A stretch of 64,000 nt of DNA from positions 1,756 through 65,755 of the forward strand of contig CANQQV010000006.1 of assembly GCA_947626095.1 (NCBI GenBank), read 5' to 3'. Each line of letters begins with the position of its first letter. The stretch's first letter is position 1. Source of the DNA: an uncultured Bacilli bacterium. Its GTDB lineage: Bacteria; Bacillota_I; Bacilli_A; RF39; UBA660. The notes beneath the pieces were generated by a model, which did not search any database, had not been told where the DNA came from, and saw nothing but the letters and a program-made list of their open reading frames with translations. Below are positions 21,527 to 26,326 of this stretch, one piece after another. A program made the position numbers and the translations under genes.

Positions 21527-22684
21527 GTGAAAGCAGTTGTTGGTTCAACTATTCAATCTAGCAGTTATGATGCAGGAATAGAATTAGCTAAAAATGCAAC
21601 TAAAGGACTTAGATTACCAAAGATAGGATTTTTATTTGGTTCAACTAAATATACCCAAGCTGAGTTACTTAGAGGGGTTAAATCTTTTAATCCTGATATA
21701 AAAGTTATTGGTTGTACTTCAAATGAAGCAATTATGACACCAGATGGAATTATTTGGAATGAAGATGGTTTTGCAGGAATGTTATCTTTAGAAGATAATG
21801 AACTTACTGTTGGGGTCGCTTTAACAGAACGTGGAACTGATGCAAGAGTAGCAGGTAGAAGAGTAGCGAAAGAAGCAATGGCAAATGCAGAGAAAAAATA
21901 TCCACCTTTAGCATTTGCTTTATTTACAACACCTGGTAGTGAAGAAGAATATATTAAGGGTATTCAAGATGTATTAGGAGAAATACCAATGTTTGGTGGA
22001 TCAGCTGCCGCTGAAAATAGTAGTCTTAATTGGAGTGTTATTTGTGAAAATAAGTCGACTAATGATGGATGTGCCATTGCTATTTTCTATACAACAAAAA
22101 AAGTTAAGAATGTCTTTGTAAATAATTATGAAAAAACAAAAAATATGGGTATTATTACTAAAATGGATGGACCAAGAAAAATTGTAGAAATAGATAATTC
22201 TTTAGCATTAAAGAAATATGCTGAATGGAATGATATCGAAGCTGAAGATATAATGGATGATAAGCTAGCTTATGCAGCTATTTCTGTACCATTAGGAGTA
22301 AGTACAACAAAAGGTGAGACTGTATTAAGTCATCAATTACTTAAAGGTAATCATGATTATTCGTTAGAAATTGGTTCAAATGCTAGTGTTGATACAGCAG
22401 TCATGCAACTTAAGATAACTGAGGATGGAATGATTGAAGGACTTGTTAAAGGAATTAATCAACTTAAAAATGAATTTAAAGCAACAGCAATAGTTTTATT
22501 GCATAGTAGTGGTCGTAAAAAATATTTAGATGAAAGAATAGATGAAGATTTTGTAGCATTGAAAAATGCGATTGGGGATATTCCTTTTATTGTTACATTT
22601 ACTAATAGTGAGTTTGGAACGGTAGATCATTCTGGAGCTTTGGTAGCTAATTTATCATTATCTATTACTGGGTTCTCTGAATAG
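21527..22684 (+). CDS. FIST-domain (FIST_N/FIST_C) sensory protein
   Basis: GTG start 7 nt after AAGGGGA. GCTSNEAI and FGGSAA segments resemble FIST N/C domains (recollection). Confidence 0.55.
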   Translation: MKAVVGSTIQSSSYDAGIELAKNATKGLRLPKIGFLFGSTKYTQAELLRGVKSFNPDIKVIGCTSNEAIMTPDGIIWNEDGFAGMLSLEDNELTVGVALTERGTDARVAGRRVAKEAMANAEKKYPPLAFALFTTPGSEEEYIKGIQDVLGEIPMFGGSAAAENSSLNWSVICENKSTNDGCAIAIFYTTKKVKNVFVNNYEKTKNMGIITKMDGPRKIVEIDNSLALKKYAEWNDIEAEDIMDDKLAYAAISVPLGVSTTKGETVLSHQLLKGNHDYSLEIGSNASVDTAVMQLKITEDGMIEGLVKGINQLKNEFKATAIVLLHSSGRKKYLDERIDEDFVALKNAIGDIPFIVTFTNSEFGTVDHSGALVANLSLSITGFSE

Positions 22685-22732
22685 TTATAAAAGAATATAT
22701 TTTCTATAATTATATTATATATTAATGGTCAT

Positions 22733-22761
22733 AAAAAAAGCTTGACTATTGAGCTTTTTTT
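22733..22761 (+). terminator. intrinsic terminator after the FIST gene
   Basis: AAAGCT(T)-loop-(G)AGCTTT hairpin followed by a T-run. Confidence 0.6.
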
Positions 22762-22882
22762 AGTTGGAAAAAATTTTAAAAAAACGCAAAAATTAAAAAA
22801 TGTAAATTTTATGAAAATCGATTTTTTGAAAAAAAAGTAAAATATTGTAAATCGAACACAAAAAAATCAAAAAATGCTTTGA

Positions 22883-22905
22883 AGTCCCTATTTTAGGGAC
22901 TTTTT
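22883..22905 (+). terminator. terminator-like hairpin inside the nrdD upstream region
   Basis: AGTCCCTA-TTT-TAGGGACT 8-bp stem followed by TTTT. Confidence 0.5.
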
Positions 22906-22920
22906 CTTATAACAATATTC

Positions 22921-22933
22921 TTGATAATATCAA
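22921..22933. promoter_or_regulatory. 13-bp palindrome, possible operator upstream of nrdD
   Basis: TTGATA-A-TATCAA. Resembles a CRP/FNR half-site pair but with non-canonical spacing. Confidence 0.25.
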
Positions 22934-23092
22934 AAATAAAAAAACAAAAATCCCTAAAAAACGGAAAAAATTAAAAAAATTAAAAAATGCAAAAAGGCAA
23001 TTTTTGAAATTTTTTGCAAAAATAAAACTTTTCTTTTTTATATATGTTTTATATAATGAAATTAGGAAAAGGTAGAAGGAGAGTTTTTAAAT

Positions 23093-25408
23093 ATGGCAAA
23101 GAAAGAAGAAGATCTTTTTGCTACTCTACAAGTAGTAAAAAGAAATGGTAAAAAAGTAGAATTTAATCCAACAAAAATTGCTATAGCAATCAAAAAGGGT
23201 TTTGATGATGTAATCGAAAAATCAATTGATGAAACTGGAGTAGCAAAATACTCTGAAAAAGATATGCAAAAAGTATTTCATGATGTTTTAGATCGAATTG
23301 AAAAAGATTATGCTGATAAAGATAAAATTAAAATTGAAGAAATTCAAGATTTGATTGAATCATCATTAAAGAGTAAAAAATATACAGATGTATATGAAAG
23401 CTTTTCTAGTTATAGAGAAAGAAGAGCACAATCAAGAGAAGCTTTTACAGAAGATAAAAGATCTCATAAATTTTTAAAAACGTTAGAAGGACTTGCTTTA
23501 AAGAGTGCTTCAGAAGATGATACAAAAAGAGAAAATGGTAATATTGATGGTAACTCAGCAATGGGTACAATGTTACAATTTGGTTCTAATGTATCTAAGG
23601 AATTTTCTAAAACATATTTAATGAAGAAAAAATTTGCTGATGCTCATGATGAAGGTGATATCCATATTCATGATATGGATTTTGAAGCAATGGGTACAAC
23701 AACTTGTTTACAAATAGATTTAGATAAACTATTTAAAGGTGGTTTCTCAACTGGTCATGGTTATTTAAGAGAACCAAATGATATTATGAGTTATTCAGCA
23801 TTAGCTGCTATAGCTATTCAATCTAATCAAAATGATCAACATGGTGGTCAAAGTATTCCATTATTTGATTATTATTTAGCACCAGGTGTTGTTAAAACAT
23901 TTAGAAAACAACTTAAAATGACAATTCAAGATTTCTTAGATTATTCAGATTTTGCTAGTTTTGTTAATATGAAAACAGTTGAAGATGTTATTAATAAATT
24001 AACAACTATTGAAACACCTGTTGAAACTTTTGAAAAATTTTATAAAGAAAATGAGTCATTGAAAAGATTATTTACAATGGCATTAGATAAAGCAGTTAAA
24101 AAGACTGATCGTATAACATACCAAGCAATGGAAGCATTTATTCATAACTTAAATACAATGCATTCAAGAGCTGGAGCACAAGTTCCATTTAGTTCAGTTA
24201 ACTTTGGTACTGATACTTCACCAGAAGGTCGTATGGTAATGAAAAATTACTTAATGGCTGTTGATGCTGGTTTAGGACATAGTGAAACACCAATATTCCC
24301 TATATCAATATTTAAAGTTAAAGATGGAATAAATTATAATCCTGGTGAACCAAACTATGATTTATTTAAATTATCTTGTAAGGTATCTGCTAAAAGATTA
24401 TTCCCTAACTTTGAATTTATAGATGCACCATATAATTTACAATATTATGTTCCAGGTAGACCTGAAACAGAAGTTGCAACAATGGGTTGTCGTACAAGAG
24501 TTATGGGTAATGTTGTTGATCCTGATAAACAAATTACACCAGGTCGTGGAAACTTATCTTTTACAACAATTAACTTAGTTAGATTAGGTATTAAACATGG
24601 TATTGTTGGTCCTAATGCTAAAGATAAAGCTGATATGAAAGGTTTCTATGAAGAGTTAGATGAAAAGATTGAATTATGTAAAGACCAATTACTTGAAAGA
24701 TTTGAAATTCAATGTAATAAGAGAGTATATAATTTCCCATTCTTAATGGGTCAAGGCAACTGGATGGATTCAGAAAAACTTAAACCTAATGATAAGTTAA
24801 AGAAAGTATTAAAACATGGTACTTTATCAGTTGGATTTATCGGTTTAGCTGAATGCTTAGTAGCTTTAATAGGAGAACATCATGGTGAATCAGAAAAAGC
24901 CCAAAAGTTAGGTCTTGAAATTATTGGCCATATGAGAAAGAAACTTGATGAATATAGTCAACAATATAAACTTAACTTTACTTGTTTAGCTACGCCTGCT
25001 GAAGGATTAAGTGGAAGATTTACTAAAATAGATAGAGCAATATATGGAAAGATTAAAGGTGTAACTGATCGTGAGTATTATACTAATTCATTCCATGTAC
25101 CAGTTTATTATAATATAACAATATCTAAAAAAATTAAAATTGAAGCTCCATATCATGCATTAACTAATGCTGGTCATATTAGTTATATTGAGTTAGATGG
25201 AGATGTAACAGAGAATGTTGAAGCATTTGAATCTGTTATAAGAATGATGAAAGAAGCTGGAATGGGTTATGGAGCAATTAACCATCCAGTAGATAGAGAT
25301 CCAGTTTGTGGATATGTTGGAGTTATTAAGGACGTATGTCCAGGTTGTGGACGTCGTGAGGGAGATCCAATTCCAGCAGAATTATTAAAGAATTTAAATA
25401 ATAAATAA
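23093..25408 (+). CDS. nrdD: anaerobic ribonucleoside-triphosphate reductase, large body lacking the glycyl-radical segment
   Basis: N-terminal ATP-cone (VVKRNGKKVEF), class III RNR core, C-terminal Cys cluster (VCGY...CPGCG). A stop occurs before any RxxGY motif. Confidence 0.9.
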   Translation: MAKKEEDLFATLQVVKRNGKKVEFNPTKIAIAIKKGFDDVIEKSIDETGVAKYSEKDMQKVFHDVLDRIEKDYADKDKIKIEEIQDLIESSLKSKKYTDVYESFSSYRERRAQSREAFTEDKRSHKFLKTLEGLALKSASEDDTKRENGNIDGNSAMGTMLQFGSNVSKEFSKTYLMKKKFADAHDEGDIHIHDMDFEAMGTTTCLQIDLDKLFKGGFSTGHGYLREPNDIMSYSALAAIAIQSNQNDQHGGQSIPLFDYYLAPGVVKTFRKQLKMTIQDFLDYSDFASFVNMKTVEDVINKLTTIETPVETFEKFYKENESLKRLFTMALDKAVKKTDRITYQAMEAFIHNLNTMHSRAGAQVPFSSVNFGTDTSPEGRMVMKNYLMAVDAGLGHSETPIFPISIFKVKDGINYNPGEPNYDLFKLSCKVSAKRLFPNFEFIDAPYNLQYYVPGRPETEVATMGCRTRVMGNVVDPDKQITPGRGNLSFTTINLVRLGIKHGIVGPNAKDKADMKGFYEELDEKIELCKDQLLERFEIQCNKRVYNFPFLMGQGNWMDSEKLKPNDKLKKVLKHGTLSVGFIGLAECLVALIGEHHGESEKAQKLGLEIIGHMRKKLDEYSQQYKLNFTCLATPAEGLSGRFTKIDRAIYGKIKGVTDREYYTNSFHVPVYYNITISKKIKIEAPYHALTNAGHISYIELDGDVTENVEAFESVIRMMKEAGMGYGAINHPVDRDPVCGYVGVIKDVCPGCGRREGDPIPAELLKNLNNK

Positions 25409-25431
25409 ATAGAAGGAAAGAGGTAAAAGGT

Positions 25432-25617
25432 ATGAAAACAGAAAAAGTAGAAAAGGTTGCTGAAACTAAAGTTGAAAGCAAAAAAATGGTAGGTGAAGGA
25501 GTAGGATTCGAAAGAATCAGAAGAATCACTGGCTATTTAGTAGGTACTGTTGAAAGATTCAACGATGGTAAAAGAGCCGAAGAACGCGATAGAGTAAAAC
25601 ACACATTTGATAAGTAA
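25432..25617 (+). CDS. stand-alone glycyl-radical segment of NrdD (61 aa)
   Basis: FERIRRITGYLVG...RVKH is the canonical NrdD C-terminal glycyl-radical motif. Own ATG 8 nt after GAAAGAGG. Different frame from nrdD. Confidence 0.75.
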   Translation: MKTEKVEKVAETKVESKKMVGEGVGFERIRRITGYLVGTVERFNDGKRAEERDRVKHTFDK

Positions 25618-25621
25618 TAAG

Positions 25622-25646
25622 AGTGGACATTGTCCACTTTTATTTT
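25622..25646 (+). terminator. intrinsic terminator after the nrdD pair
   Basis: AGTGGAC-ATT-GTCCACT hairpin followed by a T-rich run. Confidence 0.75.
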
Positions 25647-25693
25647 GGAATAAAATAATCTTATGTTATAATGAGAACGATTGAAGGTGACTT

Positions 25694-26326
25694 ATGAAAA
25701 AGTTAGATATAATCTATGAAGATAAAGAATTATTAGTAGTTAATAAAGAAGCGCATAAATTAACAATTGCGACTGAAAAAAGAGAAAGTAATACATTATA
25801 TAATGAAGCTAGTAGTTATGTTAAAAAGCAATATCCGAAAAATAAAATATTTATAGTACATAGATTAGATAAAGACACTTCAGGAATAGTAATATTGGCT
25901 AAGAATCAAGATAAAAAGTTAGAATTACAAAATAATTGGGAGAAAGTAAAGAGAGAGTATATAGCAATAGTAGAGGGTAAATTAGAAAAGAAAAAAGATA
26001 TTTTAAAAGATTATTTAGGCGAAGATAAAACGTTAAGAGTTTATATAACGAAAGATAAAAATAAAGGTAAATTAGCAATTACAGAGTATGAAGTAATAAA
26101 AGAGAATAGTAAATATTCTTTACTTAAAATAAAGATAAGAACAGGAAGACGTAATCAAATAAGAGTACAACTTGCTAATATAGGACATCCAATTGTAGGG
26201 GATAAGAAGTATGGTAGTAAAGATAATATATTAGGAAGATTAGCATTACATGCTAATTTAGTAGAATATAAAGATTATTGTTTTATGGCTAAGGATCCAA
26301 AAGAATTTAAAAAATTAATAGATTAA
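25694..26326 (+). CDS. RluA-family pseudouridine synthase (no S4 domain)
   Basis: HRLDKDTSG catalytic motif and GRRNQIR motif. Confidence 0.85.
   Translation: MKKLDIIYEDKELLVVNKEAHKLTIATEKRESNTLYNEASSYVKKQYPKNKIFIVHRLDKDTSGIVILAKNQDKKLELQNNWEKVKREYIAIVEGKLEKKKDILKDYLGEDKTLRVYITKDKNKGKLAITEYEVIKENSKYSLLKIKIRTGRRNQIRVQLANIGHPIVGDKKYGSKDNILGRLALHANLVEYKDYCFMAKDPKEFKKLID

Follow-up and report, generated by a model that had tools for sequence, protein, structure and literature searches.

A two-gene nrdD locus of uncultured Bacilli likely encodes a class III ribonucleotide reductase with its glycyl radical loop on a separate 61-residue chain

The DNA analyzed here, hereafter the window, is a 64,000-nt stretch of contig CANQQV010000006.1 (assembly GCA_947626095.1) from an uncultured Bacilli bacterium of the gut (GTDB family UBA660). 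It contains an nrdD gene, for class III ribonucleotide reductase (RNR), in two pieces: a 771-aa open reading frame (ORF1), which ends shortly after the Zn-ribbon cysteines, and a 61-aa ORF (ORF2), which carries the glycyl radical motif. A preliminary description of the window had ORF1 ending at a TAA just after its Cys cluster, the motif RIRRITGYLVG...RVKH with its Gly codon in a different frame, and a Shine-Dalgarno (SD) sequence and ATG belonging to ORF2 itself; rereading the sequence bears this out. Residue equivalences in the following list come from alignment to the NrdD of Prevotella copri.

23093..25408, + strand: nrdD large chain (ORF1), 771 aa; matches Pfam NRDD and ATP-cone and NF005497
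23705..23707, + strand: codon of Cys205, equivalent to P. copri C171, the cysteine of barrel strand 1
24488..24490, + strand: codon of Cys466, equivalent to P. copri C416, the thiyl radical cysteine that faces the glycine and receives the radical from it
24551..24553, + strand: codon of Asn487, equivalent to P. copri N435, which marks the formate-dependent NrdD type
25304..25351, + strand: Zn-ribbon Cys cluster, VCGY (Cys739) ... CPGCG (Cys749, Cys752)
25352..25405, + strand: C-terminal tail of the large chain, RREGDPIPAELLKNLNNK, directly after CPGCG
25406..25408, + strand: TAA stop of the large chain, 19 residues past CPGC
25409..25431, + strand: 23-nt noncoding spacer with the SD sequence GAAAGAGG at 25416-25423
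25432..25617, + strand: small chain (ORF2), 61 aa, predicted glycyl radical subunit; matches Pfam NRDD at model positions 533-562 of 562
25531..25533, + strand: GGC codon for Gly34, which is predicted to carry the radical (P. copri Gly711)

The large chain contains an ATP-cone (residues 13-112), an NxN flap, the catalytic barrel, and a Zn ribbon. It matches PF13597 (NRDD) with 613.7 bits (cutoff, 26.2; E value, 4.5e-184) over model positions 1-531 of 562, NF005497 with 1019 bits (cutoff, 764), and TIGR02487 with 573 bits. Its residues 13-758 align to residues 8-708 of the P. copri NrdD chain (PDB 8P23), and Glu637 falls on the catalytic glutamate, E581. Since roles have been assigned to C171, C416, N435, and E581 in the P. 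copri enzyme (PMC11226230), the radical transfer and catalytic residues of the large chain are, judged by this alignment, intact. The glycyl radical loop (RxxGY), normally on the barrel polypeptide, is not in the large ORF, which runs from the Cys cluster to its TAA as VCGY...CPGCGRREGDPIPAELLKNLNNK; RITG34Y lies in the separate ORF, in another frame, so that the ORF pair taken together does contain the C-terminal loop of a class III RNR. The Zn ribbon (HPVDRDPVCGY...CPGCG) has three cysteines only, with Asp replacing the first Cys of a P. copri CxxC. Fused relatives from the same family have the same three-Cys ribbon, and this pattern is thus not tied to the split.

ORF2 starts 8 nt past GAAAGAGG, in a frame 2 nt off that of ORF1, and its full translation is MKTEKVEKVAETKVESKKMVGEGVGFERIRRITGYLVGTVERFNDGKRAEERDRVKHTFDK. 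The small chain begins with MKTEK, has a K/E-rich leader (residues 1-20) followed by the core VGEGVGFERIRRITG34YLVGTVERFNDGKRAEERDRVKH, and carries DRVKHTFDK near its C terminus. It matches PF13597 with 32 bits, above the 26.2 cutoff, over model positions 533-562 of 562; a Pfam scan gives this family alone, with no match to PF01228. The core is 62 to 90% identical to the C terminus of NrdD proper. NF005497 is covered at positions 3-711 of 746 by ORF1 and at 710-744 by ORF2, and small-chain residues 26-58 align to residues 707-739 of the 8P23 chain. Both the family models and the P. copri alignment thus continue across the break, placing it between the Zn ribbon and the buried Gly loop and inside the P. 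copri glycyl radical domain (GRD), which was defined as residues 676-739 with Gly711 (PMC11226230). By these matches, which are far beyond chance, ORF1 and ORF2 meet precisely at the NrdD family junction. Annotation pipelines call the small ORF a "hypothetical protein" or miss it, and the large ORF may then be mistaken for a truncated NrdD.

The exact 61-aa protein was found on 12 contigs from NCBI, Logan, and ENA, and the junction is the same base for base in the ENA assemblies ERZ27249456 (100% identity over 1821 nt) and ERZ27249252. In a sister species, represented by eight further assemblies, the junction reads ...NLNLNK-TAG, with a 19-nt spacer and another frame offset, and both ORFs are intact. 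We compared the locus in the 19 genus species from which it was retrieved, the window species included. In all of them the large ORF stops with TAA or TAG, 18 to 20 residues past CPGC, and an SD sequence of the GAAAGAGG type (a weaker AGAAGAG in one species) precedes a conserved ATG by 6 to 9 nt. The small ORF is 61 aa long, or 59 aa in one species. Spacers range from 15 to 40 nt and are not kept to multiples of 3, all length differences are confined to them, and ORF2 lies at a frame offset of 0, 1, or 2 from ORF1 in 6, 8, and 5 species, respectively.

The preliminary description had allowed for one nucleotide missing from the A-rich run at 25400-25410, the true gene being a single ORF with a K/E-rich linker. 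Part of this stands: the run is rich in A, the draft genome comprises 34 contigs, and, with the ORF2 frame open as far back as 25405, one added base would join the ORFs. The missing base itself is refuted by two independent assemblies with an identical junction and by the 18 other species of the genus, which are split too, six of the species having in-frame stops; three frame offsets combined with variable spacers cannot be explained by a sequencing indel. Fused relatives, moreover, have no K/E-rich linker. An indel is thus improbable to the point of being negligible, and we conclude that the two-ORF arrangement is real and not an assembly error.

Pooled pairwise Nei-Gojobori estimates of the ratio of nonsynonymous to synonymous substitution rates (dN/dS) are 0.082 for the small ORF, with values of 0.05 for its Gly module and 0.18 for its K/E-rich leader, and 0.087 for the large ORF, and neither ORF has additional stops or indels in any of the 19 species. 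Strong purifying selection acts on both ORFs, the stretch downstream of the break included. The second alternative raised earlier was a pseudogene with an isolated frameshift: nrdD would be decaying and nonfunctional, and the organism would depend on deoxynucleoside salvage. Small genomes (1.0 to 2.4 Mb in the genus), the lack of any other detected RNR, and the unlinked nrdG (see below) agree with such decay. However, a dN/dS of ∼0.08 in both ORFs and the recurrence of the split refute it; the SD sequence and ATG are conserved, NrdG is kept in 26 of 27 genomes, and the split architecture persists across families, classes, and cultured isolates. We consider a pseudogene extremely unlikely.

A mobile-element insertion (intein or homing endonuclease) was also considered and rejected: the 23-nt spacer contains no ORF, and neither ORF has a Hint domain detectable by Pfam. 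Separately, the low-coverage contig in ERZ27249252 (2.5x; L139) misses ∼54 nt of the large ORF, relative to window positions ∼24278-24331, and is otherwise 99.9% identical; the gap is either an in-frame variant or a misassembly.

To place the locus among bacteria, one genome per species was scanned, yielding 581 relatives of the small ORF. Among the best 80 of these 581 loci, 69 are split, with a large NrdD ORF and a short Gly-motif ORF, 4 are fused, and 7 have no NrdD nearby. Overall, we count 88 split loci, defined by adjacency of the small ORF to nrdD, with frame offsets 0, 1, and 2 in 27, 36, and 25 loci, an SD sequence and start codon recognized in 79, and spacers from −1 to about 300 nt (one misassigned row excluded). 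Comparison with related NrdDs, proposed in the preliminary description, shows the split, SD sequence, and ATG again in each of the 19 genus species and, all told, at 88 loci.

The carriers include uncultured Bacilli and "Tenericutes" metagenome-assembled genomes (MAGs), many Clostridia (Oscillospiraceae, Lachnospiraceae, and Acutalibacteraceae), cultured isolates, and some bins labeled Desulfovibrionaceae or Muribaculaceae. In even genome samples, ∼21 of 111 module carriers among Bacilli and ∼13 of 84 among Clostridia have the split, with in-frame cases counted through flagged stops without individual inspection. The family of the window holds both states (19 split and 7 fused). On a FastTree phylogeny of 103 large chains, probably 6 changes between split and fused states are needed, at least 3 of them forced by well-supported branches; these loci were picked by similarity to the small ORF and are enriched for split forms. 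The tail motif EG-x-x-V/I-S/P-x-E-K/L-L is common to split forms of Bacilli and Clostridia, hinting at common ancestry plus transfer.

The variation in frame and spacing also bears on programmed recoding (−1 or +1 frameshifting, read-through, or bypass) or posttranslational ligation, either of which would restore a single NrdD chain. The ORFs are adjacent, the spacer is short, and some species have just an in-frame stop between the two, as such a mechanism would allow. Yet the frame relation is fixed neither within the genus nor among the 88 loci, spacers reach about 300 nt, and a slippery site is not among the conserved features, which are an ATG and an SD sequence at the right distance from it; this disfavors frameshifting, read-through, and bypass. 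The spacer has no Rfam match, no intein-type (Hint) domain is found by Pfam in either ORF, and the small ORFs of phages (see below) have no large ORF to be joined to. We regard restoration of a single chain as very improbable.

The split form is not a plain stop within a preexisting linker, since fused relatives lack ∼35 to 40 residues that it has gained: an ∼11- to 15-aa tail on the large chain and an ∼22- to 25-aa leader on the peptide, which in the window species are DPIPAELLKNLNNK and MKTEKVEKVAETKVESKKM. The distance from CxxC to Gly is 13 to 19 residues in fused NrdDs of the same family (for example, CPGCGRTESDGVKFERIRRITGY) versus 52 over the two chains here. Leaders differ between lineages, and the conserved core of the small proteins begins at VGEGVGFERIRRITGY.

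Many split lineages have Cys-rich tails on the large chain (NCCK, DCCQNK, NCDCNR, NSCDC, HCDC, and FCGCE; L035, L037, L038, L045-L048, and L100), recalling the redox-active C-terminal Cys pairs of class I and II RNRs. The window genus has no such tail, its large chain ending in ...LLKNLNNK. The NrdDs of L008, L009, and L010, from three other families (784 to 811 aa), have an extension past the Gly module that looks thioredoxin/glutaredoxin-like by eye (...KKVPTLFVF...).

We modeled a single-chain read-through fusion of an in-frame copy from the same genus (L017, TAA read as Q) with AlphaFold2 and a 132-row alignment. The model has the NrdD fold, with a mean predicted local distance difference test score (pLDDT) of 83.1 and a predicted template modeling score (pTM) of 0.78. 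The large-chain tail is helical (helix 763-778) with falling confidence, and the linker and leader are disordered (pLDDT of <50 at 773-798). Its best PDB match is 8p23_B, the chain with an ordered GRD (834 aligned columns, versus 581 to 726 for other P. copri chains). The models are compatible with canonical docking of the Gly module.

The window genome, at an estimated 91% completeness and 7.9% contamination, holds one glycine-less large chain and one Gly module only, with no second NrdD. It also lacks the class I/II RNR barrel (PF02867), as do 25 of 27 genus genomes and 12 of 16 further split carriers. Among these carriers without PF02867 are six MAGs from the same family, 94 to 98% complete, as well as cultured Acutalibacter caecimuris M00118, an isolate that has the split NrdD and no other. 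Thus, the two-piece NrdD appears to be the sole route to deoxynucleoside triphosphates (dNTPs) in many of these organisms. The earlier statement that no nrdG adjoins nrdD proved correct, and the search suggested along with it placed nrdG on another contig (G000:C11:4725-5165; TIGR02491, 157 bits, cutoff of 126; Fer4_12 and Radical_SAM Pfam matches). NrdG scores above the curated cutoff in 26 of 27 genomes of the genus and is unlinked in every case.

In the window genome, nrdG (L001 1459-1992) lies between genes for a helix-turn-helix-type membrane protein and a large multipass membrane protein, with no RNR gene near it in L001 (614-3441, on G000:C11). A few MAGs of the genus (G001:C3:21119-25221 and G024:C46:6426-8686) have an additional NrdD that is fused, belongs to another subtype, and has an nrdG beside it. 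These cluster in the tree with NrdDs from other families of the class (L007 and L012) and may be second copies, transfers, or bin contamination.

Taken together, these findings make it likely that the two-gene nrdD encodes an obligate two-chain, formate-type class III RNR in which the 61-aa chain supplies the glycyl radical in trans. The peptide would be obligate in the window genome, rather than a spare part, because the large chain has no Gly loop and there is no second NrdD. The ATP-cone, the barrel with the thiyl radical Cys466, and the Zn ribbon would come from the 771-aa chain; the 61-aa chain would be translated as a separate product, with an SD sequence and ATG of its own, and would add the Gly34 loop and the short C-terminal helix, which in NrdD normally sits across the top of the barrel. 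The unlinked activase NrdG would abstract a hydrogen from Gly34 of the 7-kDa chain, and the peptide would enter the barrel noncovalently, at the site of the C-terminal loop of single-chain NrdD, and hand the radical on to Cys466. Oxygen cleaves glycyl radical proteins at the glycine, so that after exposure the 7-kDa chain alone would need replacement. By analogy, the split may make the oxygen-sensitive part of the enzyme replaceable. A radical loop supplied in trans by a genuine separate ORF, as first proposed, is supported at the gene level by conservation, selection, and identical assemblies.

Several points weigh against this interpretation. The two-chain enzyme, the 7-kDa protein, their complex, and the radical are known here from genes alone; that the peptide is translated on its own, joins the large chain in trans, is activated by NrdG in the free or bound state, and confers a repair advantage is only inferred, the last point by argument from GrcA. 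The status of sole RNR rests on absence across many draft genomes, and an organism with a genome this small might salvage deoxynucleosides. In the fusion model, confidence is low over the Gly loop (residues 815-824; pLDDT of <50). A naturally fused NrdD (L006), run as a control with the same alignment, is equally weak at its Gly loop (753-759) and has the same local secondary structure; the model thus speaks neither for nor against docking.

To our knowledge, every characterized glycyl radical enzyme (GRE) has the radical glycine on the catalytic chain, and GrcA/YfiD of pyruvate formate-lyase is the sole radical module known to act in trans. The two-chain NrdD is a variant of a known enzyme class for which, as for an NrdD spare part, we found no description in full-text papers readable without subscription. 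In Aeromonas phage Aeh1, the homing endonuclease gene mobE splits the class I large subunit NrdA, a genes-in-pieces case that reportedly still yields an active enzyme (Friedrich et al. 2007). Unlike the Aeh1 case, the 15- to 40-nt spacer here contains no inserted ORF, and the break sets the radical-bearing loop apart.

The nearest solved structure is the single-chain NrdD of P. copri (PDB 8P23; PMC11226230), with phage T4 NrdD (1H78/1H79) also close. The split form shares with it the ATP-cone, NxN flap, 10-stranded barrel, a predicted Zn ribbon, RITGY motif with the following helix, and a genomic nrdG; it differs in the chain break between the Zn ribbon and the Gly loop, the unlinked nrdG, and the extra tail and leader. 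In the class II RNR of Pseudomonas aeruginosa, NrdJa/NrdJb (Crona et al. 2015, cited in PMC9669993), the enzyme is likewise encoded by two adjacent ORFs, the second of which supplies a C-terminal functional module. As far as that system is described there, it depends on adenosylcobalamin, and its second chain is much larger, with IscU-like and Zn-finger/redox parts and no radical site.

Escherichia coli GrcA/YfiD and phage T4 Y06I are autonomous glycyl radical cofactors, "spare parts" for pyruvate formate-lyase (PMC13450708, PMC8683613). The 61-aa chain resembles GrcA/YfiD as a small protein made of a Gly module alone behind a variable or disordered N-terminal part and in having phage-borne copies. 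GrcA-type proteins are thought to be charged by the activase of the parent enzyme and to complete a barrel that has no working Gly loop, as we propose here. On the other hand, the 61-aa chain is homologous to NrdD, is shorter (61 versus 127 aa), and would be an obligate subunit beside a glycine-less large chain instead of a backup. Given its match to Pfam NRDD and not PF01228 and a large chain without the glycine, it would be GrcA-like in its working while standing outside the GrcA family. The comparison with GrcA drawn in the preliminary description is strengthened by phages that carry the module only (see below), but it fails for the window genome insofar as a spare part is meant.

A June 2026 review of GREs states that spare parts are known for formate lyases only and that their existence for other GREs is undetermined (PMC13450708); an NrdD spare-part family, if true, would answer this question. 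A permanently separate 7-kDa radical chain would give an essential enzyme a quaternary architecture not seen before, and many of these anaerobes have no detected RNR besides the split NrdD. The pair would also offer a tractable system for how NrdG reaches a glycine buried in the active enzyme, for how a radical domain docks and undocks, and for how strict gut anaerobes limit the cost of oxygen damage. Mobility of the GRD has been tied to dATP inhibition in the P. copri structural work (PMC11226230).

Relatives of the peptide are encoded by 509 stretches of IMG/VR, and we classified the best 80 loci (L142-L221). Among these, the small ORF has no NrdD within 4 kb in 61, the upstream sequence is too short to judge in 12, split pairs and fused genes account for 3 loci each, and 1 has a partial NrdD match elsewhere in the locus. 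Scanning 20 viral records in full (G731-G750), we found the Gly module to be the sole NRDD match in 19, of which 13 are at least 90% complete (CheckV) and 7 have direct terminal repeats. Phages that keep the module without a barrel imply that it must act on a host-encoded barrel. These records are our strongest indirect evidence, read from gene content, that NrdD-type Gly peptides would function in trans, and they suggest that the phage-borne peptide is an unrecognized auxiliary gene that props up host dNTP synthesis.

The isolated Eggerthella phage EL753P1 (L131, OP172808.1, 1-3125) has an nrdD that contains an apparent intein insert and stops past the Zn ribbon. It is followed by a 102-aa ORF without a Pfam match and a 42-aa ORF ending in ...GEGVGFERIRRI*, with the remainder of the Gly motif (TTGYLTGSADRWNDAKKAELRDRVKHGK) in another frame; the record may contain a frameshift, or the small gene may itself be unusual.

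A free-standing 86- to 95-aa protein (L119-L130) occurs, besides a full-length NrdD, in genomes from other families of the class; in it, an ∼55-aa N-terminal part without a Pfam match precedes an NrdD-type Gly module (PFQRIRRITGYLVGTLDRFNDAK...). Examples are L124 2882-3154 (+), L128 2875-3147 (+), L119 3061-3324 (−), and L120 3086-3373 (−). In L124 and L128, the ORF lies directly 3' of a gene for desulfoferrodoxin (superoxide reductase), with a Crp-like regulator gene in divergent orientation. A parent enzyme with its own Gly loop, as expected for a spare part, coexists with these homologs and not with the window peptide; we therefore regard the 86- to 95-aa protein as a candidate for a true class III RNR spare part.

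Stand-alone homologs far from nrdD, in other genomes and in phages, raise the question of whether the small protein acts mainly elsewhere, as a radical donor or decoy for another GRE or as a regulator of NrdG, while the large chain is inactive or receives its radical in another way. Also in favor of this, other radical-SAM activase-like genes occur in some genomes of the genus. However, the core is 62 to 90% identical to the NrdD C terminus and matches the NRDD model and not PF01228; the small ORF adjoins nrdD in every species of the genus and in all 88 split loci (which are adjacency defined); and the large chain retains all radical transfer residues yet has no glycine of its own. A principal role elsewhere is, in our view, highly unlikely.

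A broader proposal is that the peptides form a large, unrecognized family of autonomous NrdD-type glycyl radical cofactors, charged by NrdG, plugged reversibly into glycine-less or oxygen-cleaved barrels, and replaced after oxygen damage. We put this forward tentatively, as a possibility that falls somewhat short of even chances. If true, this genus would have given up its own Gly loop and turned the whole radical site into a consumable, phages would exploit the system with the peptide alone, and Bacilli with a full-length NrdD would hold the 86- to 95-aa version, sometimes beside superoxide reductase, as a real spare part.

An Rfam search of 22600-25900 gave no match except a lone L20-leader match (E value, 0.4), which we regard as chance. 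The flanks of the gene pair are as follows.

ORF 21527-22684: FIST-domain gene (FIST/FIST_C Pfam match), upstream neighbor of nrdD
22881..22903, + strand: terminator-like hairpin 3' of the FIST-domain gene (10-bp stem, then a T run), the 5' limit of the nrdD unit
23071..23083, + strand: SD region GGTAGAAGGAGAG before the nrdD ATG, read directly from the sequence
25622..25649, + strand: intrinsic terminator 3' of the ORF pair, AGTGGAC-ATT-GTCCACT followed by TTTTATTTTGG, from a hairpin search
25694-26326: gene for a PseudoU_synth_2 protein, the next gene after the ORF pair

The single terminator noted earlier was recovered: the hairpin at 25622-25638 precedes TTTTATTTT, both 3' of ORF2, and the hairpin search found no terminator-like site between ORF1 and ORF2. 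The next gene was correctly named as a pseudouridine synthase. Terminator-like hairpins thus lie on both flanks of nrdD, a genuine two-gene unit whose genes are probably cotranscribed.

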